This document shows positions 1,927-31,653 of a stretch of 32,000 nt of DNA, in pieces (the stretch's first letter is position 1; each line of letters starts with the position of its first letter). Source of the stretch: Psychrobacter sp. HD31 (GTDB lineage Bacteria > Pseudomonadota > Gammaproteobacteria > Pseudomonadales > Moraxellaceae); the NCBI RefSeq assembly GCF_051097895.1, contig NZ_CP142525.1, forward strand, positions 870,001 through 902,000. Reading direction: 5' to 3'. Both the position numbers and the translations under genes were made by a program. The notes under the pieces are model-generated. The model was not told the DNA's origin and made no database searches. It saw only the letters and a list, made by a program, of their open reading frames with translations.

Positions 1927-4476
1927 CTACGCCACCGCACGGCGAGACTGGATAATACCAGGTTGTTGTTCTAATTTAGCCAATAGTTTAGACAATTGTG
2001 CCAAACCAGATACCTCAATGTGGAAAGTCATCCGAGCAATATCATCTTCTGTACTCAGGGTTTCTACCTTACGGATATTAATATTCTCATTATCAATCAC
2101 TTCAGATAAACTGCGCAACAAACCTCTACGGTCATAAGCTTCAACTTGCACAACAACAGGCTGTGCCCGCCCAACTTCAGCATACCAAGTGGCATCAATT
2201 TGTCGCTCTGGTTCTTTTTCTATTAAACGTGCATACTCAATACAACCACGGTTATGAATACTGACCCCTTTCGATTGTGTAATAAACCCAGCAATCGGTT
2301 CTCCTTGCACAGGTGAGCAGCATTTAGCTAGGTGAGTTTCAATATTATCTAACCCATCAACATTAATCTCATAGGCATTTAGCTTGCCAGTTGCTTTAGG
2401 ATGAACACTTGGTTTAAATTCAATTTCATCGGCTTCTGGTTCTAAGTCAAGTTCTTTAGAAATTTGGTTAGTTAATTGATGTATACCAATATCGCCTGTA
2501 ACCAAGCCAACCAAAATATCGTCAGCATTATTAACGCTAAAATGATTTGTATAATTGTTCAAATCAATACTGTTGGGATGCACAGACAAACGCTCAAGCT
2601 CTTTGTTAAGCATTTGTGTACCAATTTCAATGTTTTTATCCCTATCTTGACGATTAAACCACTGGCGCAGTTTACTTCTTGCTCGGCTGGTATGGATATA
2701 ACCTAATGAGGGTACAAGCCAATCACGGTTTGGCTCTCTTGCCGCTTTGGTTATAATTTCAACCTGTTCGCCCGTTTTAAGTTTATAAGTTAACGGCACA
2801 TATCTTTGGTTAACCCTTGCTGCTTGGGCACGGTTACCAACTTGAGTATGCACATAATACGCAAAGTCTAAAACCGTTGCACCTTTCGGCAGTTCGGTGA
2901 TTTCACCATCTCGGCTAAAGACATAAATACGCTCAAATTCTTCAAAATCAACGAGTTGTTCTTCTTCATCAAGTTCTACTGTTTCATCAAATTCATCATT
3001 AAACTTGCCATCAGCCCCTGTTTTTTGGTTATCATTTTGTAATGCCAAAAGGTGGCGTAATGAGCTAATCTTTTGATTAAGATAAGTGTCACTCTTACCA
3101 CCCTCTTTATAATTAACATGAGCGCACATACCCAGCTCTGCTTCAAAGTGCATATTATGGGTTCTTATCTGCACTTCTAATGATTTTTGCTCTGCAATGA
3201 CTGCGGTGTGTAGTGAGCGATAACCATTGGATTTTGGGTTGGTTATATAGTCATCAAACTGCTCTGGTATATGCCGCCATAAGCTGTGTACAATACCCAG
3301 CACAAAATAGCATTCGGCTTTGGTATTTACTAAAACCCTTAATGCTCTAATATCATACAACTGATCAAAGGATAGCCCTTTTAATTTCATCTTGCGATAA
3401 ATAGAATAAATGTGCTTCACTCGCCCTGAAACTTCACTTTCAATACCTTCTTCGGCAAGTGCGTCAACCAACTGGTTTTGAACACGCTCAATATAGGCTT
3501 CTCGTTCACTACGCTTTTCTGATAAGAGTTTGGCAATTTCTTTATATCTTTCTGGTGAGGAATAACGAAACGCTAAATCCTCAAGCTCCCACTTTAATTG
3601 CGCAATACCTAAACGGTGAGCAAGTGGTGCATAAATCGTCATCACCTCTCTAGCAACGCGCTTTTGGCGTTCTTCTGGGGCAAATGCAAGCTCTCGCATA
3701 GAAAAAGTACGCTCGGCAAGTTTGATTAAAACCACGCGTACATCATTTGTTACCGAAATCAACATACTGTAAATGTTGGTTAAATGCTCTCGCTGATTAT
3801 TGATAACATAGTCTTCAAGTCGCTGGTTTTTTTCAATGGTTTCCGACAAGCGCCCCATCGCCAGTGCTTCTTGCACAAGGTTGTTGATATTTTTACCAAA
3901 TTTTTCTTCAATCTGTTGCTGCGTAATCAAGGATTCACGAGCACTACGATATAGCATTGCCGCAACAAGCGCTTCTTCATCTTGGTGTAAATACGTTAAG
4001 ATATCCGTCATGCCAATACCTGTGGCAAAAGTACTGGATCTATCTTCATCATTACTTTCATCACACTGTTGAATAAAAGCAACGGCTGTCTTTAAATTAT
4101 CTAATTGCTTTTTCCCAATCCTATCAGCAACTTTTAATAGCCAAGCATCGACATCAATATCAACTTTAAAGTTAATGTTGCCTTCATCTGTATAATGATT
4201 TTTATTTTCTGTTTCTTGTTTTTTTGGGAAGTCCTCAAAATACAAATCAGGCAAATGCACTTCTTCGGCATTATACTGACGTTTGGATGAGCGATCTAAG
4301 GTTGAGTTAAGCTTACGAGTGTGTAGTTGATGGATGTAGTCCTCATGCCAGCTTTGTGCCTTTTTTACTTGGTTGGCTACTTGAGGGACATTTGCAATTT
4401 TTGCCGTGAGACTAACACTGTCTACCTCGGTTATTTGTCCATCTACTAGCGGCAATCCTTCTCTAATTTTTACCAC
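1927..4476 (-). CDS. relA: GTP pyrophosphokinase, RelA-type (p)ppGpp synthetase
   Basis: It has a RelA/SpoT synthetase core (YSIYRKM, NGYRSLHT) with the acidic EQFDDY motif of RelA rather than the RFKD of SpoT. The HD region is degenerate, and TGS and ACT-like C-terminal regions are present. It has a GTG start with AGGAG 7-8 nt upstream and an N-terminal extension of about 100 aa. Confidence 0.9.
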   Translation of the reverse strand: MVKIREGLPLVDGQITEVDSVSLTAKIANVPQVANQVKKAQSWHEDYIHQLHTRKLNSTLDRSSKRQYNAEEVHLPDLYFEDFPKKQETENKNHYTDEGNINFKVDIDVDAWLLKVADRIGKKQLDNLKTAVAFIQQCDESNDEDRSSTFATGIGMTDILTYLHQDEEALVAAMLYRSARESLITQQQIEEKFGKNINNLVQEALAMGRLSETIEKNQRLEDYVINNQREHLTNIYSMLISVTNDVRVVLIKLAERTFSMRELAFAPEERQKRVAREVMTIYAPLAHRLGIAQLKWELEDLAFRYSSPERYKEIAKLLSEKRSEREAYIERVQNQLVDALAEEGIESEVSGRVKHIYSIYRKMKLKGLSFDQLYDIRALRVLVNTKAECYFVLGIVHSLWRHIPEQFDDYITNPKSNGYRSLHTAVIAEQKSLEVQIRTHNMHFEAELGMCAHVNYKEGGKSDTYLNQKISSLRHLLALQNDNQKTGADGKFNDEFDETVELDEEEQLVDFEEFERIYVFSRDGEITELPKGATVLDFAYYVHTQVGNRAQAARVNQRYVPLTYKLKTGEQVEIITKAAREPNRDWLVPSLGYIHTSRARSKLRQWFNRQDRDKNIEIGTQMLNKELERLSVHPNSIDLNNYTNHFSVNNADDILVGLVTGDIGIHQLTNQISKELDLEPEADEIEFKPSVHPKATGKLNAYEINVDGLDNIETHLAKCCSPVQGEPIAGFITQSKGVSIHNRGCIEYARLIEKEPERQIDATWYAEVGRAQPVVVQVEAYDRRGLLRSLSEVIDNENINIRKVETLSTEDDIARMTFHIEVSGLAQLSKLLAKLEQQPGIIQSRRAVA

Positions 4477-7053: not shown

Positions 7054-8130
7054 TTACAATATCGGATTAACCGTTGGTATGATGCCCTCTTTATTGGCAT
7101 ATTTAGGGTTAAAAGTTTTAACTTTTGGTTGCGTTGGTAAGCCTATGTCTTCTAATTCATCGGTTTGTCCAACTTGTATATTATCCCCTTCAAATAGTCT
7201 TTCTTCATTATCACGATCAAGGGTTAATTTTTCAAAATCAAACAGCTCTCTATCGGCCAGTTGTGATGGCGCAACATTTTGAATGCCTTTAAAAATAGAT
7301 GCCAATCTTTGTGGATGCGCATTATCCCATTCTCGTAACATCTCATTAATTGCTGCGCGTTGTAAATTGGTTTGACTACCGCAAAGTCCGCAAGGGATAA
7401 TTGGGAAGTCTTTATATCGTGCATATTTAATAATGTCTTTTTCTTCTACATACGCAAGCGGGCGGATCAACACATTTTGTTTATCATCACTTAAAAGCTT
7501 GGGTGGCATGGCTTTAATAGAACCGCCATGAAAAAGGTTTAAAAAGAAGGTTGCTAAAATATCATCACGATGATGCCCTAACGCAATTTTTGTTGCCCCA
7601 ATTTGTTTTGCAAAGCCATATAAAGAACCACGACGCAAGCGAGAACAAGCCGAGCAATACGTTTTACCTTCTGGCACTACACTTTTAACAATGCTGTAAG
7701 TATCTTTTTCTAAAATATAATGTGGTATACCCTGCTGGTTTAAATACTCTGGCAAAATATGATCAGGGAAGCCTGGCTGTTTTTGATCAAGGTTCACCGC
7801 AACCACCTCAAAGTTGACAGGCGCAATACGTTTTAAAAACAACAAAATATCAAGCAATGTATAACTGTCTTTACCGCCAGAAATACAAACCATGACCACG
7901 TCACCCTCTTCAATCATGTTAAAATCGCGAATCGCCCAAGACACATGCTTGCGTATCTTTTTTTGCAATTTACGGAACCGAACCGAGTTGACACCTTTAT
8001 GGTAAGGCTCATGTTCTTGTTTATCTTCATCCGTATTATTTTCAGTCACTGTATCTTGTGCATTAATTTGCAAATCAAGTTCATCATCACTGATGTTGGC
8101 TGCGTTAATAAAATTTTGTGGTTGGGTCAT
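7054..8130 (-). CDS. ttcA: tRNA 2-thiocytidine(32) synthetase TtcA
   Basis: It has the PP-loop SGGKDS plus the [10 protein letters not shown] and CGLCGSQ cysteine motifs typical of TtcA. An acidic N-terminal extension of about 45 aa is present. Confidence 0.9.
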
Positions 8131-8281
8131 TGTATATTGTGTATTTAATCATTAAAATTGGTGGGTTATTATAACAAAACTATCCGCTTTTAAACCATCC
8201 GTTACTATTATTTATGCAGTAAAAATTAATTAAATTTGTTAAAATAACCGACCTTTTTTTTAGCTTAAAATTAATAGACCC

Positions 8282-9016
8282 ATGACAATACATGACCAAA
8301 CTCAAAACGCTGTTGTACTTTTATCTGGTGGCTTAGATTCTGTCACCTGCCTTTATTGGGCAAAGAAGCAGTTCAATAAAGTAACCGCCATTAGCTTTAA
8401 TTATGGTCAACGCCACAATAGTGAGCTGCAAACAGCCATCGCTAACGCAAAGCAGGCAGATGTTGCCCATCGTATTATTGATATAGATATTGCACAGCTT
8501 GGTGGATCATCATTAACTGACCACAGCATGATTGTGCCAGATGGTAAGGTTAACAATAGCTCACTCGATTCTAATGAACAAAACACCCTAAACAGTGACA
8601 TACCAAACACGTATGTCCCTGCCCGTAACACTATATTTCTATCTTACGCTTTGGCTGTAGCAGAAGTAACCAAAGCAAACCATATTGTGATTGGTGTTAG
8701 CTCGGTTGATTATTCAGGTTATCCAGACTGCCGACCAGAGTATATTGAAGCGTTTGAAAAGATGGCAAACCTTGCAACAAAATTTGGCGTGACTGGCCAT
8801 AAGCTGCACATACAAACGCCATTACAACAATTATCAAAAGCCGAAACCATCCAGCTTGGTATTTCTTTAGGTGTCGATTATAGTTTAACTACTTCTTGCT
8901 ACCGTGCAGATGAAAGTGGTAAAGCTTGCGGTAAGTGCGACAGCTGTGTACTACGCAAGCAAGGCTTTAAACAAGCTGGTGTTGATGATCCAACGCATTA
9001 CCAATCAAGGCCTTAA
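8282..9016 (+). CDS. queC: 7-cyano-7-deazaguanine synthase QueC
   Basis: It has the [12 protein letters not shown]-loop and a C-terminal Cys cluster ([20 protein letters not shown]). An N/S-rich insertion of about 25 aa is present. Confidence 0.92.
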
Positions 9017-16240: not shown

Positions 16241-19216
16241 ATGAGCAATCCCACTCCTACCCAAACTCATACCGCTATCGACCCAACCATCCTGCCCGAC
16301 TTTGATACCATGCCAAACGTCGCCTTGATGGATACCAACCATGTGGATAGAAATGACCCACCGTTTATCCTTGTTGATGGTTCTTACTATTTATTCCGTA
16401 CTTATCATGCCCTACCAGAGATGACCACCAGCAAGGGGTTGCACACCAATGCCATCAAGGGCACGCTCAATGCCTTACATAAGCTGATGCGTCGCTATCA
16501 CCCTACACACATGGCAGTGGCGTTTGATACAAAGTCGCCTACCTTTCGCCATGTGATATCTGAGCTATATAAAGGTGACCGCCCGCCGATGGATGAGGAG
16601 TTAGTACAACAACTGCCTTATATTCATAAGCTGGTTGAGGCATTGGGCATTCCCATGTTGCGTATCGAAGGGGCTGAAGCAGATGACATTATAGGGACGC
16701 TTGCCCACCGTGCAGTTGAGCAAGGTCATCATGTGGTTATCTCTACAGGGGACAAAGACATGGCACAGCTGGTCAATGGTGCCGTGGTGCTAGAAGACAG
16801 CTTTAAAGGCGTGGTTACTGATGTGCAAGGCGTGCATGAAAAGTTTGAGGTTGCTCCAGAGCAAATCATTGATTATCTAACCCTGATGGGCGATGCCTCA
16901 GACGGTATCAAAGGTGTGCCAAAAGTCGGTAAAAAAACAGCGGTTAAACTGCTAAAAGAATATGGCTCACTGGATAATATCCTTACCAATGCACCCAACA
17001 TAAAAGGTGTGGTGGGTAAAAACCTTGTAGAATTTGCTGATAATACCGTCACGGATAAACAGATGGCGACCATTGTCACCAATATGAACATCGGCACCAA
17101 TTGGGAAGCGTTAAGAATCAATACCGACCCAACCGCACATATTGACGAGTTGCGTGCGTTATATACCGAGCTTGAGTTTAGAAAAGACTTGGACTCGCTA
17201 AATCACCCAAACCACCCTGCTAATGCTCAAGCTAATGGATTCCCTACCTCTTCTACAGAGCAAACAGCAACGGTGACGAATGAAGATAAAGACACACCAA
17301 ACGCATGGCACACGGTTCTTGAGCGGCCTGCATTTGATACTTTGGTAGCACGTCTTGCGTCTGCCCCGTATTTTGCCTTTGATACCGAAACCACCAGCCT
17401 AAACTGGCGTGAAGCGGAAATCGTTGGCGTGTCAGTGGCACTAGAAACCAACGAAGCCTATTACATTCCACTGGCTCATGGACTTACCAAAAAAGGCGAA
17501 GAGGCAACCCTAGCACTAGAAGAACAAACAGACCCATTAATTGCCAAACAACTCGACCGTGAGGCTGTGCTTGCAAGGCTTAAACCGATTTTAGAAAATC
17601 CAAACATCGGTAAAGTAGGACAACACTTTAAATACGACTCGCACGTGTTAAGTAACTATGACATTGAGCTAAACGGCTGGCAGTCTGATACCATGCTCGC
17701 CTCCTACGTGCTCAACGCTGCTGCGACTCGCCACGGTATGGACGCACTTGCCAAACATTACCTAAACAAAGATACCATCAAATATGAAGACATAGCAGGC
17801 AAAGGCGCGAAACAAGTCACCTTTGACAAAGTGGCAATCGACATTGCCAGTGATTATGCCTGTGAAGATGCCGACATTACCTTACAGTTGCATGAGCTGT
17901 TTAGCCAACAGTTAAGACAGGATAACAATAATACCCGCCTGCTTACACAATTAGAAATCCCTACCGCTCAAATCCTAACCAAAATGGAAGCCAACGGCAT
18001 TTTAATTAATCGGGCGTTTTTGGCTGAGTTGTCTGAGCGATTTGACCACGAAATCAATGCCCTTGAACAACAGGCGTATGACATCGTTGGTGAGACATTT
18101 AACTTAAGCTCACCAAAACAACTTGGGGTGATTTTATTTGAAAAAATGGGCATTGCAGGCGGTAAAAAGACCAAATCAGGGCAATACTCTACTTCAGAGT
18201 CAGTCCTTGCTAAGATTGACCACCCACTTGTCGAAATTGTACTGGAATACCGCAGTTTATCTAAGTTAAAAAGCACCTATACCGATGCTCTTGCCAAAGT
18301 TGCCGATGGCACAACCGACCGTGTACATACCAGCTACCATCAAGCGTTGACCAGTACAGGGCGTTTGTCGTCTACTGACCCAAACTTACAAAACATCCCC
18401 ATCCGCACGGCAACAGGTCGCCTAATACGTCAAGCTTTTATCGCACCAGAGCCAAGCAAACAGCCTACACAATGCACTGCCAAACGCATCATCATGGCGG
18501 CGGACTACTCACAAATAGAACTTAGGCTGATGGCTCATTTCTCAGGTGATGAAAACTTGATTGCCGCCTTTAACCAAGGCTTGGACATTCATAAAGCCAC
18601 CGCCGCCGAAGTGTTGGGTAAGGACATCAACGAGGTGAGCAAAGAAGAACGACGCAATGCCAAGGCAATTAACTTTGGTTTGCTGTATGGCATGAGCCAG
18701 TTTGGACTTGCCAAACAGCTTGGGTTGTCTCGCACTGAGGCTCAGGACTATATTAATCTGTACTTTGCCCGTTATCCTAAGGTCAAAGACTACATGAGCA
18801 ACACCCGTGCCAGTGCCTATGATTATGGTTATGTAGAAACCATTTTAGGGCGTAAGCTGTATACGCCAGATATCCAAAGCAGTAATCGTATGGTCAAGCA
18901 AGGGGCTGAGCGTGCGGCGATTAATGCCCCACTACAAGGCAGTGCAGCAGATATTATCAAGCTGGCGATGATTGCGGTGGATAAGGCTTTAACGGATAAT
19001 GGCTTTGATGACCATGCCAAGATGCTATTACAGGTGCATGATGAGCTGGTGTTTGAGGTCGATGAAGATAAGGCTGATGAAATTGGTACACTGATTCAAA
19101 CTGCCATGCAAAATGTATTGACAAATACAGCGACAGACTTAGGCTGGCAGGTTGATTTTGCTGTGCCTTTGTTGGTGGAAGTAGATAAAGGTGAAAATTG
19201 GGATGAGGCTCATTGA
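16241..19216 (+). CDS. polA: DNA polymerase I
   Basis: It has a 5' nuclease domain, a 3'-5' exonuclease motif (FDTETTSL) and polymerase motifs (DYSQIELRLMAH, QVHDELVFE). At 991 aa it carries a low-complexity linker insertion. Confidence 0.97.
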   Translation: MSNPTPTQTHTAIDPTILPDFDTMPNVALMDTNHVDRNDPPFILVDGSYYLFRTYHALPEMTTSKGLHTNAIKGTLNALHKLMRRYHPTHMAVAFDTKSPTFRHVISELYKGDRPPMDEELVQQLPYIHKLVEALGIPMLRIEGAEADDIIGTLAHRAVEQGHHVVISTGDKDMAQLVNGAVVLEDSFKGVVTDVQGVHEKFEVAPEQIIDYLTLMGDASDGIKGVPKVGKKTAVKLLKEYGSLDNILTNAPNIKGVVGKNLVEFADNTVTDKQMATIVTNMNIGTNWEALRINTDPTAHIDELRALYTELEFRKDLDSLNHPNHPANAQANGFPTSSTEQTATVTNEDKDTPNAWHTVLERPAFDTLVARLASAPYFAFDTETTSLNWREAEIVGVSVALETNEAYYIPLAHGLTKKGEEATLALEEQTDPLIAKQLDREAVLARLKPILENPNIGKVGQHFKYDSHVLSNYDIELNGWQSDTMLASYVLNAAATRHGMDALAKHYLNKDTIKYEDIAGKGAKQVTFDKVAIDIASDYACEDADITLQLHELFSQQLRQDNNNTRLLTQLEIPTAQILTKMEANGILINRAFLAELSERFDHEINALEQQAYDIVGETFNLSSPKQLGVILFEKMGIAGGKKTKSGQYSTSESVLAKIDHPLVEIVLEYRSLSKLKSTYTDALAKVADGTTDRVHTSYHQALTSTGRLSSTDPNLQNIPIRTATGRLIRQAFIAPEPSKQPTQCTAKRIIMAADYSQIELRLMAHFSGDENLIAAFNQGLDIHKATAAEVLGKDINEVSKEERRNAKAINFGLLYGMSQFGLAKQLGLSRTEAQDYINLYFARYPKVKDYMSNTRASAYDYGYVETILGRKLYTPDIQSSNRMVKQGAERAAINAPLQGSAADIIKLAMIAVDKALTDNGFDDHAKMLLQVHDELVFEVDEDKADEIGTLIQTAMQNVLTNTATDLGWQVDFAVPLLVEVDKGENWDEAH

Positions 19217-19362
19217 TATTTACAACTAATAAGCTGAACCATTTCAAATCAAATAAATATAACACTTACGTATCTAAATAAACATTTATTTAAAATGTTA
19301 ATAGATTATAAAACAAGCAAGCGTAGGCTGGTCTTATATCATATTACGTTAGAGAGTTTACT

Positions 19363-19866
19363 ATGAAAAAAGCATTAATAACCATGCTGGCTTTAAGTTT
19401 GACAGGTTGTGGTATTACTGGTTATATGCAATTGTGGTCTGATTTAGGCTCAGATAAGACCCATGTGTCTAATCAAGATAACCGTTGTATTGAAAATATT
19501 AAGCCATTAATTTTATGGCATGGTCATAAAGTTCATATATACCAAAAATATTTTATTACTCCTACGTCAGTTGCTGATGAACGAATACGAACCCATAAAA
19601 AAACAGATACAATTGATGTGGGCACTAAGTTTAGAGTTAACAGGGTCTATGAAGGTTATAAAGACTATTGGAGGTTACGAGTAAATGTGGAGTTTTTACA
19701 AGGCAAAAATACAGGAATTATTTCTGAATTATCAGGTTTCATTTATCCTCCAAATACACCTTTATTTACTTATTATAATCAGGGAGAAAGAATTACTAAA
19801 AGTGAAGATTTAGCAGCAAATACGGTAACTTTTAATCCTGAGTTTTTTAAATATTGTGATGAGTAA
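19363..19866 (+). CDS. Hypothetical lipoprotein
   Basis: It has a lipobox (MKKALITMLALSLTGC) and an upstream purine-rich RBS. I recognise no family. It lies at the edge of the AT-rich islet. Confidence 0.6.
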   Translation: MKKALITMLALSLTGCGITGYMQLWSDLGSDKTHVSNQDNRCIENIKPLILWHGHKVHIYQKYFITPTSVADERIRTHKKTDTIDVGTKFRVNRVYEGYKDYWRLRVNVEFLQGKNTGIISELSGFIYPPNTPLFTYYNQGERITKSEDLAANTVTFNPEFFKYCDE

Positions 19867-19896
19867 TTGAAGGTAATGTTATCTACGTAGCAAGTA

Positions 19897-20030
19897 GTAG
19901 GGTGCGTTCCACGCACCATTTTATACAACCAAACCAAATTAAATAAAGATTTTTATGATTAATATCATGTATCTATAAACATAATAAAATCAATATCGTG
20001 TCATCTTTCAGTGCGTGGAACGCACCCTAC
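19897..20030. repeat. REPIN/MITE-like element, family A, copy 1 (inverted REP doublet)
   Basis: Its ends are GTAGGGTGCGTTCCACGCAC ... GTGCGTGGAACGCACCCTAC, perfect 20-nt terminal inverted repeats. Each contains a GGTGCGT/ACGCACC hairpin preceded by GTAG. A second copy with about 10 mismatches lies at 21672-21805. Confidence 0.8.
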
Positions 20031-20038
20031 GCACTGTG

Positions 20039-20153
20039 TTAATTTTTTTTATAAGCTTTGCGAAATTGTTCTATATGTTTGGTAAGTAGTTGTGATTTTC
20101 TATCATACAGGTTTATGGTAATAAAGTAACATCCACCTTTGGTTTTGTCTCAT
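20039..20153 (-). pseudogene. Remnant of a REP-associated tyrosine transposase (RAYT, IS200/Y1 family) N-terminus
   Basis: My minus-strand translation is KTKGGCYFITINLYDRKSQLLTKHIEQFRKAYKKN*. This matches the RAYT N-terminal block as I recall it from E. coli YafM (KGGTWFFTVNLRNRRSQLLTTQYQMLRHAI). The ATG (20153-20151) is in a different frame, implying a frameshift, and the ORF stops after about 35 codons next to an A8 run and a REP. Confidence 0.55.
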
Positions 20154-20241
20154 ATTTAGGTTCGCATGCGCTGATTTATCGTTTGATTTTATGTTTATAG
20201 GCTTTGTTCATAATATCGTTTTTATTTGAACATAACAATTT

Positions 20242-20265
20242 GCTGGGCAAGATGCCCAGCCTACG
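20242..20265. repeat. Solo REP, family B
   Basis: The sequence is GCTGGGCAAGATGCCCAGCCTACG, a GCTGGGCA/TGCCCAGC hairpin followed by CTAC (GTAG on the other strand). Confidence 0.7.
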
Positions 20266-20310
20266 TTCTCTGGCTTGATTTTGATAATGGTATCTACGCT
20301 CGCTTAGACA

Positions 20311-20598
20311 TCATGGAATAATCTCATAAGTAAATTTATCTACCCAATTGAATTGTTCATCTTGTTTTTTAGTTTTTTTGAACACTTTAATTATATCATC
20401 AAAAGTATCTATGTTTTTTCTTGACACATCTGCGTTTATCCAAGTGATGTGAACAGGTCTTTCAACATTAGCACTTAATGTGTCCCATAAAGCATCCAGA
20501 TTTTTTCCATAATATTTTTGTATATCAAATACTTTTGCAATTTTATCGTGAAAACCCTGTTCAGTTAAGATTTTTTTTCCATCTAGTACAATATTCAT
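20311..20598 (-). CDS. Barstar-family ribonuclease inhibitor (orphan immunity protein)
   Basis: MNIVLDGKKILTEQGFHDKIAKVFDIQKYYGKNLDALWDTLSANVERPVHITW aligns along its length with B. amyloliquefaciens barstar (..[49 protein letters not shown]), including the barnase-contacting Asp35/Asp39 equivalents. I set the start at the ATG at 20598 rather than the track's TTG at 20610. Confidence 0.85.
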   Translation of the reverse strand: MNIVLDGKKILTEQGFHDKIAKVFDIQKYYGKNLDALWDTLSANVERPVHITWINADVSRKNIDTFDDIIKVFKKTKKQDEQFNWVDKFTYEIIP

Positions 20599-20600
20599 AA

Positions 20601-20684
20601 TTACTTCCAAGTTCCTATAGCTGTTGCTGATTTGTAATGATAGTTTGTGATATATAACAAACCATCATTAGAATAGTTAAGTAC
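20601..20684 (-). pseudogene. Short C-terminal remnant of a barnase-like RNase toxin
   Basis: My minus-strand translation is VLNYSNDGLLYITNYHYKSATAIGTWK*. It resembles the barnase C-terminus (ILYSSDWLIYKTTDHYQTFTKIR) and includes the catalytic His position. The stop is 2 nt before the barstar ATG, and the 5' side is cut off by REPIN-B. Confidence 0.5.
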
Positions 20685-20686
20685 CA

Positions 20687-20820
20687 ATAGGCTGGGCTTA
20701 TAGCCCAGCAGATTATAAAACTAAAAAATCAATACAAACAAACTTTAGAAAAATAACGGATTGAAATATTCGTAAAGTTATACATCCCCTACAAAATAGC
20801 TGGGCAAGATGCCCAGCCTT
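20687..20820. repeat. REPIN/MITE-like element, family B, copy 1
   Basis: The sequence is ATAGGCTGGGCTTATAGCCCAGC ... AGCTGGGCAAGATGCCCAGCCTT. Inverted terminal REP hairpins flank an AT-rich core of about 90 bp. It is near-identical (about 8 mismatches by eye) to 21434-21568. Confidence 0.8.
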
Positions 20821-20830
20821 ATATTCCTTA

Positions 20831-21274
20831 CTAATTCATAATTAGATAAATATTAGGTGGCGACTCATACATAGCATCAAAAAAATTAGCTTCTTTTAAA
20901 TTCATTGTTTGCCATTGCACAACTTCACACATCTGTGCTGTAAGGCTGGTTAAGTATGAATCATTTAATACTAATAAAACTTTTTGAGAAAAAACTGGAT
21001 ACTTATTAACAAACTCTAACCAGCCTACAATATATACATCTTTCCAATTATTCCATTGTTCTATAAACCAATCAGAAACAATATCATGTAAAGCGTCTAG
21101 GTTTTTTCCTATTTGAATGTCCGTACTATAACTGGCTCTAAGATTATTGCCAATAGCTATTAAAAAATCATCTTCTAGCTTACATTGTTTCAGGTTAATA
21201 ATTATATTATCTGAGTTCTCAGACCGTTTTTGACCAAATTGATTCCAGCTTTCTTTATTTTCAAAGACAATCAT
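20831..21274 (-). CDS. Barstar-like immunity protein (extended, 147 aa)
   Basis: The central block DFLIAIGNNLRASYSTDIQIGKNLDALHDIVSDWF carries the barstar GxNLDALxD motif with both Asp retained. Its start codon overlaps the stop of the upstream RNase fragment (ATGA). Confidence 0.7.
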   Translation of the reverse strand: MIVFENKESWNQFGQKRSENSDNIIINLKQCKLEDDFLIAIGNNLRASYSTDIQIGKNLDALHDIVSDWFIEQWNNWKDVYIVGWLEFVNKYPVFSQKVLLVLNDSYLTSLTAQMCEVVQWQTMNLKEANFFDAMYESPPNIYLIMN

Positions 21275-21432
21275 TTTATTCTTCCAAATGAGTCATAATG
21301 AGTACCTGTATAATACATTCTGCCGTCACTACCGACAACGATTCTGTCTGTACCTGCACCTAAACCATCTCTTACATTTTGAATGTCATATTCTTTATAG
21401 GTTATTTTATGACCCGATTTAGTTACAGTACC
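21271..21432 (-). pseudogene. 5'-truncated barnase/RNase Sa-family toxin domain (C-terminal 53 codons)
   Basis: My minus-strand translation is GTVTKSGHKITYKEYDIQNVRDGLGAGTDRIVVGSDGRMYYTGTHYDSFGRIK*. It aligns with RNase Sa (YHEYTVITPGARTRGTRRIICGEATQEDYYTGDHYATFSLID) and barnase (WREADINYTSGFRNSDRILYSSDWLIYKTTDHYQTFTKIR), with the catalytic Glu, Arg and His positions present. It has no start codon, and the upstream side runs straight into REPIN-B. Confidence 0.75.
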
Positions 21433-21433
21433 A

Positions 21434-21568
21434 GTAGGCTGGGCTTTTAGCCCAGAAGATTATAAAACTAAAAAATCAATACAAACAAACTTTAGAAAAA
21501 TAACGGATTGAAATATTCGTAAAGTTATAAACCCCTTACAAAATAGCTGGGCAAAATGCCCAGCCTAC
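21434..21568. repeat. REPIN/MITE-like element, family B, copy 2
   Basis: The sequence is GTAGGCTGGGCTTTTAGCCCAG ... AGCTGGGCAAAATGCCCAGCCTAC. It has the same architecture and core as 20687-20820. Confidence 0.8.
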
Positions 21569-21671
21569 GCTTGCTAGCACCAATGGAATTATTCACATCC
21601 GCTCTACCAATATTGGTTACATTATCCGCATAATAGCCACCCACCACTTGGTCGGGGTTATGTAGACCCAA
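21569..21671 (-). pseudogene. Internal fragment of a toxin-like ORF (possibly an HNH/EndoVII-fold nuclease domain), truncated on both sides by REPINs
   Basis: The minus-strand frame is open across the whole 103-bp unique segment and reads LGLHNPDQVVGGYYADNVTNIGRADVNNSIGASK. The H-x-P-D-x3-G-G ... N-x-S-I-G pattern reminds me of His...Asn cores in polymorphic-toxin HNH-type nucleases. This is recognition from memory only. Confidence 0.35.
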
Positions 21672-21805
21672 GTAGGGTGCGTTTCACGCACCATTTTATA
21701 CAAAAAAGCCAAATTAAATAAAGATTTTTATTATTAATATCATGTATTTATAAACATAATAAAATCAACATCGTGTCATCTTTCAGTGCGTGGAACGTAC
21801 CCTAA
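21672..21805. repeat. REPIN/MITE-like element, family A, copy 2
   Basis: The sequence is GTAGGGTGCGTTTCACGCAC ... GTGCGTGGAACGTACCCTAA. It is colinear with 19897-20030, and its right end provides the stop codon of the 109-aa ORF. Confidence 0.8.
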
Positions 21806-22131
21806 GCACTTCTCCTATAGAATTCTATAAAAACATCATGTTTGTCAGGGCAAGTACGGAAGAATTCTACTTGAGAAGTAGAAAATATCTTGCTATTGAT
21901 GTTATAATCATTTTGTATTGAACTTGCTTCTAAAAAATTATCAATTAATAATGAGAACTCAAACATTATTTCATCTCTTATAACTTCTTCATCTTCATGA
22001 CTTTTATCATTTAGGATAAAATACAGGGATATTTGTTTACCATTCATAGAAAAATAAATTCTCTTGAAGTTATCATTTATCTCACCCAAACAAGCTTGCG
22101 ATAACAAAAAACACACATGAAAAAAATCCAT
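21802..22131 (-). CDS. Hypothetical 109-aa protein (candidate orphan immunity protein)
   Basis: An intact ORF has a strong RBS (AGGAG 7 nt upstream of the ATG). It is small, acidic and cytoplasmic-looking, and its context is a toxin/immunity cassette array. I recognise no family. Confidence 0.5.
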   Translation of the reverse strand: MDFFHVCFLLSQACLGEINDNFKRIYFSMNGKQISLYFILNDKSHEDEEVIRDEIMFEFSLLIDNFLEASSIQNDYNINSKIFSTSQVEFFRTCPDKHDVFIEFYRRSA

Positions 22132-22170
22132 AATCAGCTCCTATTTCACTGGCACTATACTAACTTTCTT

Positions 22171-22187
22171 AGGCTTATAGCCCAGCA
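22171..22187. repeat. Degenerate REP family B half-site
   Basis: AGGCTTATAGCCCAGCA matches the left REP-B (AGGCTGGGCTTATAGCCCAGCA) with a 5-nt deletion that destroys the hairpin. Confidence 0.4.
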
Positions 22188-22407
22188 ATATCATTGCCTA
22201 ACCAACAATACCTAATCGTATTCTAAATCCATTATAGTTAATATACCATCATTACCCCAGTCAGATGAATAAAGACCTTTTTCAATATAGCAAACGCCTC
22301 CAACATTGTTATGCTATGTGCCTTTACTTTTGTTCAATATTATTCTATCAGGGCTATTTTGGCATCTGTTTTTGCGGGGGCTGTTGTGGTGGTTTAGGTT
22401 AGTTGTA

Positions 22408-22429
22408 CTGGGCAAGATGCCCAGCCTAC
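22408..22429. repeat. Solo REP, family B
   Basis: The sequence is CTGGGCAAGATGCCCAGCCTAC, the same hairpin plus CTAC as at 20242-20265 and in the right ends of REPIN-B. Confidence 0.7.
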
Positions 22430-22446
22430 GGTTCCTTTTCAATAAA

Positions 22447-23070
22447 TCAAATTAAATGCAGGTATTTATTGATTATATATTCATATACATGTTTTTTATC
22501 AAACATTGTAATCTCTACTTTAGCAGTGCCACGCTCCCAAAATAAAACTTGCCACTCTGTTTCACTTATTTTTTTTATACTTTCACAATCATTTCGTGTT
22601 TGAAAATCACCATAAAACCAATCTTCAATTTTACCAGTGATAGACTCTTGGTTAATTACAACTTCCTTAAAAACTTCTCGAATCTCATTGATACGTCCAA
22701 CAAAATCTTGATACGTCTCTAAAGGATTCAAGAGAATTGCTACTGCCTCTTCAAAGTTTTTAGTTTCTCGATACCAGCCCTTTGTTGGATATGAATCTAG
22801 ATTTACTGACAGTAATTTTTTTGATTTGTTGCGGTATTGATCAAATAAAACCTGTAAATCAAAAAAGTCTGGATGATATGTACTGATAGATATATGCTTA
22901 CCAGAATCAATTTTATAAATTCTAGATTCATCGCCAAAAGATTCAATCGTGATGCCAGATTCAGACTTTAATGGATAGAGTGTATTACCTACTCTGTCTA
23001 AATCAATATTAAATTCTGTATAAAAAAAACGACGATACTTATTCATTTTTTCCAATCTATCATTGTTCAT
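22447..23070 (-). CDS. Hypothetical 207-aa protein (candidate immunity protein, unknown family)
   Basis: It is an intact ORF with no signal peptide or TM segment. Its ATG directly abuts the TAG of a 27-codon upstream ORF (23071-23154), a coupled arrangement like the toxin-immunity pairs downstream. I recognise no family. Confidence 0.6.
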   Translation of the reverse strand: MNNDRLEKMNKYRRFFYTEFNIDLDRVGNTLYPLKSESGITIESFGDESRIYKIDSGKHISISTYHPDFFDLQVLFDQYRNKSKKLLSVNLDSYPTKGWYRETKNFEEAVAILLNPLETYQDFVGRINEIREVFKEVVINQESITGKIEDWFYGDFQTRNDCESIKKISETEWQVLFWERGTAKVEITMFDKKHVYEYIINKYLHLI

Positions 23071-23427
23071 CTATGTTGGTTCTATACGTTTATAAAATGA
23101 GAAGTTATGTGCATCATACTGTAACTTACCACGCCCATACAAACCAGCAAACATGTAGAGTTTTATTTAAAACTAACCAAAAGAAATTTTTACCCAATTA
23201 TCAAGCGCCAACTTAGGTCGTGTTAACAAGGTACGAGCTTAACACGACAAAATTCTAGTCAGTAAAAAAACACTTAGTTAAGAAAAAACCAGATGCTGAC
23301 ATAGCCCTGATTGCAGCGGTTATACTGCCTGATTTGGTGGGTTGCAAAGGCTAGGTTTTGGCGGGGCGACGCGGTGAGCAAGCGACACGCCAAACCGTGC
23401 CACTGCCCCACAAAAACAGGTAGATAA

Positions 23428-23450
23428 TAGCGAAAAGCAGGTTTTCGCTA
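23428..23450 (-). terminator. Possible terminator hairpin downstream of the DEAD-box helicase gene
   Basis: TAGCGAAAA-GCAGG-TTTTCGCTA forms a 9-bp stem about 65 nt after the helicase stop. On the minus strand a moderately U-rich tract (UUAUCUACCUGUUUUUG) follows. Confidence 0.45.
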
Positions 23451-23513
23451 CAAAATAACGACTTTTAAAAACTAAATAACACCTAAAAATAACATCAAAA
23501 CACAATGTTAAAA

Positions 23514-25073
23514 TTAATGTTTTGGCTTACCCTTTTTAAAGCCCTTAACCATTTTACTGGTTTTACCAAAAACCTCTTCTTTCACACCAGTACGCTTAAC
23601 TGGCTTGCCCATTGGTTTGGCATTACGGTTAGTACGCTTTAAGTTTGGTTTAGGTACTTTTTTATGCTGCTTACCCTCGCCAACGCCTTCACCAAACTTG
23701 TCTGCACGCTCTGCCCCAAAACGCTTGCCTTTTCTTCTTTTTGCTTTGGTTGGGTCATAATCAAAGCCACGGTTTCGTCCATTTTTGCCATTACCTCTTG
23801 GTTTACCATTTCTACCGCCTGCTTTACCACCTCGGCTATTGCGTTCACGCTTGGCAATATAAGGTTTTGGCTCCATACCATTAACTTCATGCACCTCAAA
23901 GGTTTGCTCTAAAAAGTGTTGCAACTCAATTAAACGGCTACGCTCGACATGGGTGGCAACCGTAATTGCCTTGCCTTGCTTGCCTGCACGCCCTGTGCGC
24001 CCAATGCGATGCACATAGTCTTCGTTTTTCATGGGTACGCCATAGTTAAACACATGGCTGATGGTTGGCACATCCAGCCCACGTGCGGCAACATCGGTGG
24101 CAACTAAAATTTTAACCTTACCACTACGCAGTTTTTTAAGTTGCTTCATACGCAAATGCTGTTGCATGCCACCGTGCAAATCAACAACATCATAGCCCTT
24201 TTTGCGTAAATCAAACGCCAAGCGTTCGGTTTCTACCTTGGTTGGGGCAAATACTACCGCTTGCTCTATCGGCTCATTGCGTAACCAATGCATCAGCAAG
24301 GATTGCTTATGCATTTCATCATCTGCCCAATAAAGTGACTGTGTGATGTCGGCATGTTTGTCTTGCGTGTTAGCCAGCTCAATGCGCTCAGGGTTGTTCA
24401 TTAATTTGCTACCAAGGCGCACAATCTCGTCTGCAAATGTGGCAGAAAACAGCAGGGTTTGCTCTCTATTTGCCGAAAACTGAGCAATTTTGGCAAGGGC
24501 TTCACTAAAGCCGAGGTCAAGCATTCTGTCGGCTTCGTCCAGCACTAGGTGGGTAACATAGTCGAGCGAGATGTTGTTTTTGCTTTGTAAATCTAGCAAA
24601 CGCCCAGGGGTGGCAATCACCACCTGTGCCCCTTTAAGCCCAGCAATTTGTTTTGGGTAAGACATCCCACCAACAACGCTGGCAATACGAACGCCTTGTG
24701 TTTTTTTAATTAAATTAACGGCATCTTGAAACACCTGTTGCACAAGCTCCCTTGTTGGGCAAATTACCAAAACTTGCGGACGTGATTTTTTATGGCGGCT
24801 ATGCTCTGGTGGTAAGGTGTTGATAACATTTGCCAAACACGGCAACAAAAAGGCAATGGTTTTACCACTACCCGTTTGGGCAGATACCATCAAATCCTTG
24901 CCTGCTAACGCTTGGTTTAAGGTTTGCTCTTGTACTTGTGTTGGGCTATTAAAACCCATGTCATCCAGTGCTGCTAATAAAGGCTCAGGTAACTGATAAT
25001 CAGCAAACTTTGTTGTATTTGCTGATTGATCAACATCGTTGTTTTGAGGGTTGCTTGTTGTTTGGTTAGGCAT
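23514..25073 (-). CDS. DEAD-box ATP-dependent RNA helicase (RhlE-like) with basic C-terminal tail
   Basis: It has a Q-motif region, AQTGSGKT (motif I), DEAD (II), SAT (III) and HRIGRTGRAG (VI). The C-terminal 120 aa or so are K/R/G-rich. Confidence 0.93.
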   Translation of the reverse strand: MPNQTTSNPQNNDVDQSANTTKFADYQLPEPLLAALDDMGFNSPTQVQEQTLNQALAGKDLMVSAQTGSGKTIAFLLPCLANVINTLPPEHSRHKKSRPQVLVICPTRELVQQVFQDAVNLIKKTQGVRIASVVGGMSYPKQIAGLKGAQVVIATPGRLLDLQSKNNISLDYVTHLVLDEADRMLDLGFSEALAKIAQFSANREQTLLFSATFADEIVRLGSKLMNNPERIELANTQDKHADITQSLYWADDEMHKQSLLMHWLRNEPIEQAVVFAPTKVETERLAFDLRKKGYDVVDLHGGMQQHLRMKQLKKLRSGKVKILVATDVAARGLDVPTISHVFNYGVPMKNEDYVHRIGRTGRAGKQGKAITVATHVERSRLIELQHFLEQTFEVHEVNGMEPKPYIAKRERNSRGGKAGGRNGKPRGNGKNGRNRGFDYDPTKAKRRKGKRFGAERADKFGEGVGEGKQHKKVPKPNLKRTNRNAKPMGKPVKRTGVKEEVFGKTSKMVKGFKKGKPKH

Positions 25074-25153
25074 TTAGGTTAAACTCGCTTATATGTGTAT
25101 GCAGTTGAGGAGGGTAATTTTGAGTCGGTACAATACCGATTAAAGTTGATTAA

Positions 25154-25200
25154 AAAAGATAAAAAGCAAAAGCCCTCATCCTAAAGATAAGGGCTTTTGC
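25154..25200 (-). terminator. Rho-independent terminator of mscL
   Basis: GCAAAAGCCCT...AGGGCTTTTGC forms an 11-bp stem (25166-25200), followed on the minus strand by a T-rich run. Confidence 0.7.
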
Positions 25201-25235
25201 TCTATATAGCAAATTATACGCTGTAATTGTATCAA

Positions 25236-25658
25236 TTACTTGCTAAGTTTTTCGCTAATTTCACGCAGTAGTACCACTTCTTCACTTGGCTCTGCTGGTG
25301 CTTCTTCATCAGCGGCACGCATTTTGTTCATTGAACGTACCATCATAAAGATGATAAACGCTAAAATAACAAAATTGATAAGTACAGTAATAAAGTTACC
25401 ATAAGCAAGCATTGGCACACCGGCTTCTTTAAGTGCTTCATAAGTCATGGCTGTGCCTTCTGGTACGTCACCCAACACAGTAAACATGTTAGCAAAATCT
25501 AAATCACCGCCCATCACAGCAGATACAAGCGGCATGATGATGTCTTCTACCAATGACGTTGTAATTGTGCCAAACGCAGCACCAATAATCATACCAACAG
25601 CTAAGTCGATAACACTACCATTTGCAGCAAAGTCTTTAAACTCTGACATTAAACTCAT
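25236..25658 (-). CDS. mscL: Large-conductance mechanosensitive channel MscL
   Basis: The conserved N-terminus (EFKDFAANGSVIDLAVGMIIGAAFGTI) and two TM helices are present. It is 140 aa, with a GAGGAA RBS. Confidence 0.95.
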   Translation of the reverse strand: MSLMSEFKDFAANGSVIDLAVGMIIGAAFGTITTSLVEDIIMPLVSAVMGGDLDFANMFTVLGDVPEGTAMTYEALKEAGVPMLAYGNFITVLINFVILAFIIFMMVRSMNKMRAADEEAPAEPSEEVVLLREISEKLSK

Positions 25659-25918
25659 GATTGTTTCCTCAAATAATTTATTTATAGATAGTTTTGAATT
25701 AAAAATTTAGTAAACTCAGCATCGGATTTTATAGCAAAAAACGGCAAAAGTCATGTGTTTTTTTGTATTGCATTAACTCTTAACCCATTGTATTTATAGG
25801 GATTTAACTTTTATGAACTCGGTACACATAAAAAAGTAAGGTAAACTATAAACGATTTTTTTATAATAAAAATGTATATTAACTTTAGTTTATGTTACTC
25901 ATTTAAAAGGATATTGAA

Positions 25919-26716
25919 ATGACCAAGCTTACTATTATGATTACCGGCGCTAGCCGTGGTATTGGGCTGGCGACGGCAAAAAAACTTGCTAAACAAGGGC
26001 ATAGTTTAGCACTGTTTGATATAGATACAGACACTTTAGGCAGTGCGTTAACCGATAAAGTTTTTAAAAAAGCGCATAAAGCCAAACGTATTGTACAAGG
26101 GCATTTAGATGTGACTAGCCCAGAAGATTGGGATAGCGCATTAGAACACACCGTAGAGCACCTTGGTGGTATTGATGTGCTCATTAATAACGCTGGCATT
26201 TTGGTATCTGGCGAACTACCCAAAACAGAGCTAGAACAACAGCTAAAACTGGTAGATATTAATTGTAATGGCGTGCTCATTGGTTGCCATAAAGCTGCCC
26301 AACGTTTAAAAGGCGATAAATACAGTAAAATTATTAATCTGTCATCTGCTTCTGCCATTTATGGGCAGTCAGAAATTGCACCCTACTCTGCAAGCAAGTT
26401 TTTTGTACGTGGTTTAACTGAAGCATTAAATATAGAATATGCTGCACTGGGTATTAAAGTGGTAGATGTGATGCCATTGTGGGTTAATAGTAACCTGACC
26501 AAAGGGGTTGAAGTAACCAGCATTAAACGCTTAGGCATTAACCTAAAACCAGAAGATGTGGCAAACACCATTAACAAGCTGGTAAGCAAACCCAATAATA
26601 GAGTCAACAAGCCACACTATGCGGTTGGTATGCCAGCTAAGTTGCTTAACAGTGTTGCTCAGGTTAGCCCAGAGTTTTTAGTGCGTAGTATTAATAAAAT
26701 GGTGGGTGTTAAATAG
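25919..26716 (+). CDS. SDR-family oxidoreductase
   Basis: It has TGASRGIG (TGxxxGxG), NNAG and the catalytic YSASK, on a classical short-chain dehydrogenase scaffold. Confidence 0.9.
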   Translation: MTKLTIMITGASRGIGLATAKKLAKQGHSLALFDIDTDTLGSALTDKVFKKAHKAKRIVQGHLDVTSPEDWDSALEHTVEHLGGIDVLINNAGILVSGELPKTELEQQLKLVDINCNGVLIGCHKAAQRLKGDKYSKIINLSSASAIYGQSEIAPYSASKFFVRGLTEALNIEYAALGIKVVDVMPLWVNSNLTKGVEVTSIKRLGINLKPEDVANTINKLVSKPNNRVNKPHYAVGMPAKLLNSVAQVSPEFLVRSINKMVGVK

Positions 26717-26790
26717 CCAAGGTAATATTAGTGAGTCGCACCGCTTGTTAATAGCATAACGGCTATCATCAAAAGTTATTATCAAAAAAC

Positions 26791-31329: not shown

Positions 31330-31653
31330 ATGACCTTTGTTGTAACCGATAACTGTATCAAATGTAAATACACCGACTGTGTAGAAGTTTGCCCTGTTGA
31401 TTGTTTTTATGAAGGACCAAACTTTTTAGTAATTCATCCAGATGAATGCATTGACTGTGCATTATGTGAGCCGGAGTGTCCTGCAAATGCTATTTTTTCT
31501 GAAGATGAAGTACCCGAAGGGCAAGAAGAATTTATTGACTTAAATGCAGAACTTGCTGAAGAGTGGGAAAACATCACAGAAATGAAAGATAAAATGCCAG
31601 AAGCCGATAAATGGGACGGTGTTGAAGGCAAGGTCCAGTATTTAGAGCGTTAA
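31330..31653 (+). CDS. fdxA: 7Fe ferredoxin (FdxA type)
   Basis: The sequence [29 protein letters not shown]...[12 protein letters not shown] gives the Cys spacing for [3Fe-4S] and [4Fe-4S] clusters. It is 107 aa. Confidence 0.93.

Follow-up and report, generated by a model that had tools for sequence, protein, structure and literature searches.

The window analysed here comprises 32,000 nucleotides (nt) of Psychrobacter sp. HD31 (contig NZ_CP142525.1, positions 870,001 to 902,000; coordinates below are positions in the window), that is, 32 kb of a chromosome of 2.17 Mb. Between the polA stop codon and the terminator hairpin of a DEAD-box helicase gene, it carries a variable, AT-rich islet (19220-23214; unstranded, as are the repeats described below). 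In this islet all four immunity-type open reading frames (ORFs), 558 codons in total, are intact and keep a ribosome-binding site or translational coupling, whereas all three toxin domains that could be identified are truncated. The proteins of the window match those of HD31 exactly (genes VH441_03780-03800).

Results

Extent and variability of the islet

An AT-rich islet at this place had been picked out by a sequence-only reading of the window, and its composition agrees: GC content is 0.28-0.36 over 19200-23100 (~0.30 for the islet), whereas polA and the helicase gene reach 0.41-0.50 (~0.45 for the flanks). That reading gave the extent as 19867-23320; the location holds, but the islet begins at 19220, takes in the gene of a 167-aa lipoprotein, and ends at 23214, about 100 nt earlier. 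The ORFs that it listed (27 codons, 207 aa, 109 aa, 147 aa, barstar and 28 triplets) are present on the minus strand at the places it gave, and its account of the repeats REPIN-A, REPIN-B and single and degenerate REP-B is accurate.

The boundaries were set by alignment with L081, a Logan contig from another sample; sister contigs of this kind were recovered through members of the protein clusters. The window and L081 share 98.4% identity over 23214-26719 and 93% in the final 146 nt of polA, and homology breaks off 3 nt past the polA stop codon on the left and at ~23214 on the right. Between these flanks L081 carries an unrelated 4.7-kb cargo (L081:3579-8146) encoding a C5 DNA methyltransferase (PADLOC DrmMII/MTase_II, E 4e-168), a 758-aa HATPase_c_3 protein and a 368-aa protein, so that the interval does vary between strains. 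The cargo resembles a restriction-modification or defence-type module in the same hotspot. A polA-anchored scan of species genomes returned, among the matches listed, only distant relatives (at most 78% identity) without synteny.

The right-hand junction is a helicase-proximal hairpin (23217-23248, minus strand), identified by the alignment with L081, where the same hairpin lies at 3474-3505. Divergence between the strains starts within its loop and 3' arm, which places the recombination breakpoint within or just after the hairpin. Neither an integrase nor flanking direct repeats were found at the islet junctions, and the simplest inference is therefore that the islet was gained or exchanged by homologous recombination in the flanking core genes.

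Immunity genes and truncated toxins

The 95-aa gene (20311-20598, minus strand; intact, GGAAG ribosome-binding site) matches PF01337 Barstar with 71.7 bits (cut-off 23.4, E 5e-20) and Bacillus barstar structures in the PDB over residues 3-80 (E 2.4e-10), and on these matches it is a true barstar homolog. In the position expected for a toxin before barstar lies the 28-triplet ORF (20601-20687, minus strand), which begins at a REPIN-B edge and is probably the C-terminal tail of a barnase-type RNase. This tail had no match in a six-frame Pfam scan; its 'DGLLYITNYHY' aligns to 'DGRMYYTGTHY' of the relative P0023 with E 0.008, in a single pairwise comparison that retains only 'DGxxYxTxxHY'.

The second gene of this kind (147 aa; 20831-21274, minus strand; intact) overlaps by ATGA the C-terminal half of a barnase-family RNase toxin (PF00545; 21271-21432, minus strand), which is cut N-terminally at a REPIN-B edge. 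The RNase half covers positions 52-97 of the 98 in PF00545 (E 7.5e-9, 36.4 bits against a cut-off of 24) and is thus an incomplete catalytic domain, with ~60 N-terminal domain residues gone relative to P0022 and P0023. Homologs of the 147-aa protein, 43% identical in contig L091 and 32% in L092-L094, are likewise encoded behind PF00545 RNase domains, again with an ATGA overlap of 4 nt; among these RNase proteins, P0022 combines PT-HINT with the RNase and is 75% identical to the window fragment. In the profile of the 147-aa family, 'GKNLDALHD' aligns to the inhibitory helix-2 'GKNLDALWD' of barstar (hhalign E 1.2e-3), and three homologs score 18.4-21.3 bits against Barstar, so that all four family members scanned match weakly; the profile has no match among PDB sequences. 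The helix-2 motif and the RNase pairing together argue for a barstar-like immunity gene.

The best intact relative of this RNase cassette (L091:2564-3633) is itself an orphan, a 210-aa ORF that starts inside PT-HINT followed by a 146-aa immunity gene, and it adjoins HIT-family and Dus genes; stand-alone modules of toxin tip and immunity gene therefore seem common in the group. In L092 (3-425), an unannotated 140-aa ORF ahead of the orphan RNase C-terminal domain resembles a further orphan immunity gene.

These relatives bear on two other explanations. First, the islet could be a silent reservoir of alternative toxin tips that recombine onto a full-length toxin elsewhere, as orphan cdiA-CT/cdiI, rhs and mafB-CT modules (CT, C-terminus) do; the orphan C-terminal domains of L091-L094 begin at a conserved PT-HINT 'WVHN' junction, the type of homology used in such swaps. 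The window fragments, however, start inside the toxin domain at REPIN edges, so that the pretoxin junction and half or more of each domain are deleted and neither a recombination handle nor a functional tip is left; no full-length toxin lies within the 32 kb either, and a tip reservoir is very unlikely. Second, small two-gene units with overlapping stop and start codons might suggest type II toxin-antitoxin modules of the barnase/barstar kind, which act as addiction systems inside the cell. We regard this as extremely improbable, as the intact relatives of the toxin contain a PT-HINT (pretoxin) or PAAR (delivery) domain, typical of polymorphic toxins that are secreted, and as the toxin halves deleted here leave nothing to neutralise in cis.

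The 109-aa gene (21802-22131, minus strand; intact, AGGAG ribosome-binding site) appears MafI2-like by its homologs and predicted fold. Four of its homologs have precomputed matches to PF26541 MafI2, graded weak. In L085 (Psychrobacter sp. ENNN9_III), a 56% identical homolog lies 10 nt past the gene of a 389-aa PAAR protein, the C-terminus of which is Ntox50 (E 6e-6) with the MafB2 toxin 8hhj_B as its best PDB sequence match (E 0.036); MafB2-CT is an RNase A-fold toxin that is blocked by MafI2 (PMC9970974). The AlphaFold2 (AF2) model of the 109-aa protein (predicted local distance difference test, pLDDT, 78.7) has MafI2 itself, 8hhj_A, as its top Foldseek match among 350,542 PDB chains (probability 0.96). 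Although each of these sequence and model lines is weak, they are independent and concordant. A remnant of a PAAR-Ntox50 toxin was looked for upstream of the 109-aa gene, and none was found. Past the PAAR-Ntox50/MafI2-like pair of L085 (6692-7446), unannotated ORFs of 112 and 131 aa resemble further orphan immunity genes.

The fourth gene encodes a 207-aa protein (22447-23070, minus strand) of a small Moraxellaceae family with 17 representatives among 1.84 billion proteins, all from Psychrobacter or Moraxella where the organism is named. Its AF2 model (pLDDT 88.9; predicted template modelling score 0.87) shows two beta3-alpha units and had no meaningful Foldseek match in the PDB or BFVD (template modelling (TM) score <0.25). 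Its candidate function comes from TNT linkage in relatives. In four family members, a TNT (PF14021) NAD+ glycohydrolase domain is fused N-terminally to the family domain. Contigs L104-L106 encode a toxin (at least 503 aa) whose C-terminus is a TNT domain; a gene for a 221-aa family member lies 78 nt downstream, and a TNT fusion comes next (L104:2365-3276). From these fusions and this gene order we infer that the family probably confers immunity to TNT-type toxins, the weakest of the four assignments.

The four fusions (P0033, P0034, P0037 and P0069; 303-321 aa) hold a complete TNT domain and the candidate immunity domain in one chain and are conserved across clusters less than 50% identical to one another, apparently as a translational fusion of toxin and immunity protein. 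The 207-aa gene stands alone in the window, as family members do in L100 and L107, and the window holds no significant TNT remnant. The 27-codon ORF that abuts it (23071-23154, minus strand; TAG, then ATG) has no Pfam match and was rejected as a C-terminal TNT remnant, as it offers a mere 'GRGK' resemblance (E ~10). In L100-L103, contigs of Psychrobacter immobilis/faecalis type, a 238-aa family member (8001-8717) lies among small unannotated ORFs, a cluster placed between hsdR/AAA-ATPase and hsdS/hsdM of a type I restriction-modification locus.

One more toxin piece, of 34 codons (21573-21665, minus strand), lies between REPIN-A and REPIN-B and is an internal fragment of Ntox15, a Tde-type DNase. 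It covers positions 93-123 of the 153 in PF15604 (E 4.9e-6, 27.1 bits against a cut-off of 22.5), an incomplete domain that carries HNPD, an HxxD motif, and no cognate immunity gene follows it. A stop-interrupted frame (22203-22301, minus strand) is 100% conserved in a second sample, L083; it had no family match in the six-frame Pfam scan and is not tied to any toxin. The sequence-only reading had taken every toxin piece to be truncated and every putative immunity gene to be intact. The former is correct for the RNase half, the RNase tail and Ntox15, while the 27-codon ORF and the stop-interrupted frame match no toxin; the latter applies to all four ORFs, each of which can be tied to immunity, two firmly and two by inference.

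Repeats and the transposase remnant

The islet contains two families of repetitive extragenic palindromes (REPs), A and B, which occur singly or as inverted doublets (REPINs). With up to 2-3 mismatches allowed, the 32 kb hold 8 REP-B and 4 REP-A matches against ~0 in shuffled sequence, and all 12 lie inside the islet. The REPINs measure 140 nt each. REPIN-A copy 1 (19896-20035; folding z = -8.0), two inverted REP-A hairpins with GTAGG heads, is 94% identical to copy 2 (21671-21810; z = -3.3), which overlaps the stop codon of the 109-aa gene; REPIN-B copy 1 (20680-20819; z = -4.1), a terminator-like hairpin, is 95% identical to copy 2 (21427-21566; z = -5.2). Single REP-B units lie 37 nt past the barstar stop codon (20237-20274) and 8 nt past that of the 207-aa gene (22402-22439), and a degenerate REP-B (22172-22187) has an intact copy in L083. 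The REPINs explain an excess of terminator-like sites (9 against 2.1 expected). All five intact islet genes have a REP or REPIN at most 40 nt from the stop codon, and wherever a toxin domain could be identified, its truncation point coincides with the edge of a REP or REPIN. We found no literature on REPINs in toxin-immunity arrays.

Beside the first REPIN-A lies what remains of a REP-associated tyrosine transposase (RAYT), a Y1 transposase (20039-20167, minus strand): its first 42 codons, which contain two in-frame stops, are truncated by the REPIN and read 'MRT*I*DKTKGGCYFITINLYDRKSQLLTKHIEQFRKAYKKN*'. The remnant, which the sequence-only reading had recognised, is real; it had no match in the six-frame Pfam scan, and over 41 aa it shares 66% identity (E 1e-18) with the N-terminus of a 178-aa Y1_Tnp protein (PF01797, E 1e-10), whose gene in L226 and L163 is flanked by REP-B copies and situated downstream of a ferredoxin gene. 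A REP-B is retained ~70 nt upstream of the remnant, as in the intact relative.

In L226 (3-1250), L163, L168 and L219, REP-B directly follows a ferredoxin gene that is 76-77% identical to window positions 31330-31652, and in L226 and L163 the intact, REP-B-flanked RAYT lies after this gene. After the ferredoxin gene of the window comes just a plain terminator, and the sole RAYT trace is the islet pseudogene 11 kb away.

The alternation of genes and hairpins, and the confinement of all REP units in the window to the islet beside a transposase remnant, could indicate an integron-like or RAYT-driven platform on which hairpin repeats serve as sites that capture immunity cassettes singly, a gammaproteobacterial analogue of the Bacteroidales cluster rAID-1, which has repetitive intergenic sequences and a recombinase (10.1101/471110). 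Several observations count against such a platform. REP-B occurs in at least 120 metagenome contigs, none of those listed encoding an islet protein, and it lies beside ordinary genes in 6 of the 6 inspected; we therefore rejected it as a cassette-specific repeat and regard it as a generic REP family. Dense REPs are the normal setting of a RAYT gene, so that the density in the islet is what one expects by comparison with L226, and the RAYT here is dead. Finally, neither an integron integrase nor a XerD-type recombinase was found in the window, where the Y1 transposase remnant is the only such trace in or beside the islet, and the REP arms, judged by inspection of the sequence and not by a formal attC model, are self-palindromic with a GTAG head and lack the attC R'/R'' core. 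We consider the platform very unlikely indeed.

A bolder proposal combines two elements: that RAYT-seeded REP/REPINs strip toxin domains and stitch immunity genes into an array, as an HUH-transposase/REP counterpart of rAID-1, and that the 207-aa protein founds a new TNT-NADase-immunity fold that also exists as single-chain fusions. Taken as a whole, this proposal is distinctly doubtful.

Possible constraint on the 207-aa gene

L083 contains the region of the 207-aa gene at 97% identity. Within the coding sequence, 2 of 624 positions differ from the window (0.32%), against 21 of 443 (4.7%) and 31 of 275 (11.3%) in the neighbouring non-coding stretches, or 52 of 718 together. Since the coding sequence is far less diverged than its flanks, this comparison suggests that the gene is under constraint.

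This contrast, from two samples, counts against a neutral graveyard, that is, a decaying polymorphic-toxin locus or a set of imported cassettes in which the immunity ORFs are intact only because decay is recent, and confer nothing. The state of the islet offers that explanation some footing: it is heavily colonised by REPs and REPINs, its RAYT is dead, it has stop-interrupted frames and a degenerate REP, and its proteins form tiny clusters that suggest a rare and recent lineage. A promoter scan that showed no enrichment (21 sites against 24 expected) is in line with it, if uninformative in itself. Nevertheless, four of four immunity ORFs are intact with their ribosome-binding sites or coupling, and every toxin domain is truncated; we think the graveyard unlikely, though not far-fetched.

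Surrounding genes

At the left end of the variable segment, the plus strand encodes a 167-aa predicted lipoprotein with the lipobox LTGC (19363-19866). It has no protein-family match and only a weak match of signal-peptide type, is a singleton at 90% clustering, and is missing from L081. It could, speculatively, be a periplasmic immunity protein.

Elsewhere in the 32 kb, the scanned ORFs that reach 100 aa (spurious overlapping ones left out) belong to housekeeping families or have no Pfam match. The families include Fpg, RelA/SpoT, OmpW, QueC, AhpC, MscS, RlmKL, an OmpA-domain protein, PolA, the DEAD-box helicase, MscL, a short-chain dehydrogenase, a NosD-like protein, ferrochelatase, a U32 peptidase and ferredoxin. 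In agreement with the sequence-only reading, no CdiA/B, Rhs, MafB, PAAR or VgrG family and no type VI (T6SS) or type VII secretion system gene occurs among the window ORFs scanned, and the 32 kb contain neither a secretion-system gene nor a full-length polymorphic toxin. Islet proteins had no match in NCBIfam or PADLOC, and no literature on strain HD31 was found. PolA itself (991 aa) has an apparent N-terminal extension of ~40 residues ahead of its 5'-nuclease domain (16241-16370, plus strand), and the PolA ORF of P. coccoides is comparably long (984 aa).

Discussion

Antidotes that are kept intact beside weapons that are truncated are best accounted for by an immunity-only defence cluster. 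Our analysis thus favours, with a probability of roughly 70%, the reading that the islet is such an interbacterial defence cluster in a polA-helicase recombination hotspot. Two of its proteins would act against RNase toxins of the barnase type, one against an RNase of the MafB2/Ntox50 type, and one probably against a TNT NAD+ glycohydrolase. Each would work in the cytoplasm, where it would bind and block the matching toxin domain injected by a neighbour and so allow survival without owning the weapon. From what is known of the families, the barstar-type proteins are predicted to occlude the RNase active site and the MafI2-type protein to block an RNA-binding surface. The toxin domains that once accompanied these genes would have been cut to non-functional stubs. 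Exchange of the segment between strains, for which alternative cargo and sharp junctions were observed, would proceed by homologous recombination in the core flanks, and the REP/REPIN hairpins probably double as terminators or 3'-end hairpins and provide substrates for deletion. In Bacteroidales, clusters of orphan immunity genes have a protective effect (10.1101/471110, PMC12247911, PMC10470768); expression of the islet genes and protection by them are predictions of our analysis.

Several observations weigh against the defence reading. The assignment of the 207-aa gene draws on the neighbourhoods of homologs that are only ~25-28% identical and all on short contigs, and most members of its family are lone genes, either between core genes or in a type I restriction-modification island. 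Against Pfam, the 147-aa protein falls below the Barstar cut-off (21.5 bits against a curated 23.4, E 2e-4), and the 109-aa protein itself had no MafI2 match in the local scan. The structural match of the latter to 8hhj_A is weak (Foldseek E 0.013, TM score 0.43-0.46), and neither its family profile nor its sequence matched PDB sequences beyond chance. The absence of toxins applies to the 32-kb window, and a cognate full-length toxin elsewhere in the 2.17 Mb is possible. The lipoprotein gene has no place in this explanation and remains unexplained by it, and the promoter scan counts here as well.

The sequence-only reading had called the arrangement possibly undescribed, which was overstated: the acquired interbacterial defence (AID) clusters and their recombinase-associated form, rAID-1 (10.1101/471110), and a putative T6SS immunity islet of Salmonella Typhi (PMC7400221) are prior stand-alone orphan clusters. 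With AID-1, AID-2 and rAID-1 of Bacteroidales (10.1101/471110, PMC12247911) the islet shares orphan immunity genes consolidated without cognate toxins, skewed G+C content, pseudogenised remnants, immunity to toxins of different pathways, repetitive intergenic sequences and strain-variable presence; as in the AID type, immunity-type genes (two firm, two inferred) are clustered without cognate toxins, and low GC and the alternative cargo of a sister strain are signs of horizontal acquisition. It differs in its size (4 genes against up to 31), in its Moraxellaceae host, in the absence of a conjugative element, and in having as repeats ordinary REP/REPINs with a dead RAYT. It also lacks the conserved XerD-family tyrosine recombinase that heads the rAID-1 array.

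The Salmonella Typhi islet (PMC7400221) and the orphan arrays of Vibrio cholerae (PMC5361080) likewise show, on a proteobacterial chromosome, immunity genes that outlast the loss or displacement of their effectors. The V. cholerae arrays, however, lie within T6SS auxiliary clusters beside an active effector (PMC5361080), whereas no secretion or effector gene accompanies the islet in 32 kb, and the toxin types represented here (PT-HINT RNase, Ntox50, TNT and Ntox15) are not bound to one system. The orphan cdiA-CT/cdiI, rhs-CT and mafB-CT/mafI cassettes (PMC4287609, PMC9970974) resemble the islet in their tandem modules of toxin C-terminus and immunity gene with truncated toxins. One islet gene is MafI2-like, and its partner toxin family, Ntox50, is among the listed MafB C-terminal domains (PMC4287609, PMC9970974). 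Those arrays nonetheless lie directly downstream of a full-length toxin and keep the conserved recombination junction, and the islet does neither.

At the level of single components, the likeness is to the barnase-barstar pair of Bacillus amyloliquefaciens (PDB 1brs), in that gene 1 is a true barstar, gene 2 has the inhibitory helix-2 motif, and the partner fragments belong to PF00545. By contrast with that pair, the RNases of the relatives are tips of PT-HINT polymorphic toxins, which are truncated in the islet, and gene 2 has a C-terminal extension of 50 aa. For the repeats, our comparison draws on REP/REPIN-RAYT systems as Nunvar in 2010, Bertels and Rainey in 2011 and Ton-Hoang in 2012 reportedly described them. 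The features shared with such systems (PMC5581495) are short, GTAG-headed palindromes, their pairing as inverted doublets, an extragenic 3' position and a Y1 transposase between its own REPs (L226). In the islet, however, the RAYT survives as a pseudogene of 42 codons into which a second REPIN family has cut, and the REPs coincide with the points of toxin truncation.

In summary, the islet is best filed as a small Moraxellaceae case of the known kind of orphan immunity cluster. Its novelties are modest: a candidate TNT immunity family that includes single-chain fusions and whose predicted fold has no PDB match; REP/REPINs, along with a dead RAYT, at every toxin breakpoint; and a core-gene hotspot that holds either the islet or a methyltransferase module in near-identical strains. 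Immunity-only clusters, for which gut Bacteroidales and some enterics provide the best examples, would thereby extend to Moraxellaceae. Three toxin-immunity pairings become testable predictions, the TNT-linked candidate family gains a confident predicted fold that is unmatched in the PDB or among viral models, and the islet provides a concrete case of REP/REPIN elements marking each toxin truncation point. As a single hotspot accommodates the anti-toxin islet in one strain and the methyltransferase module in another, systems that protect against neighbours and, probably, systems that protect against phages would share insertion sites.

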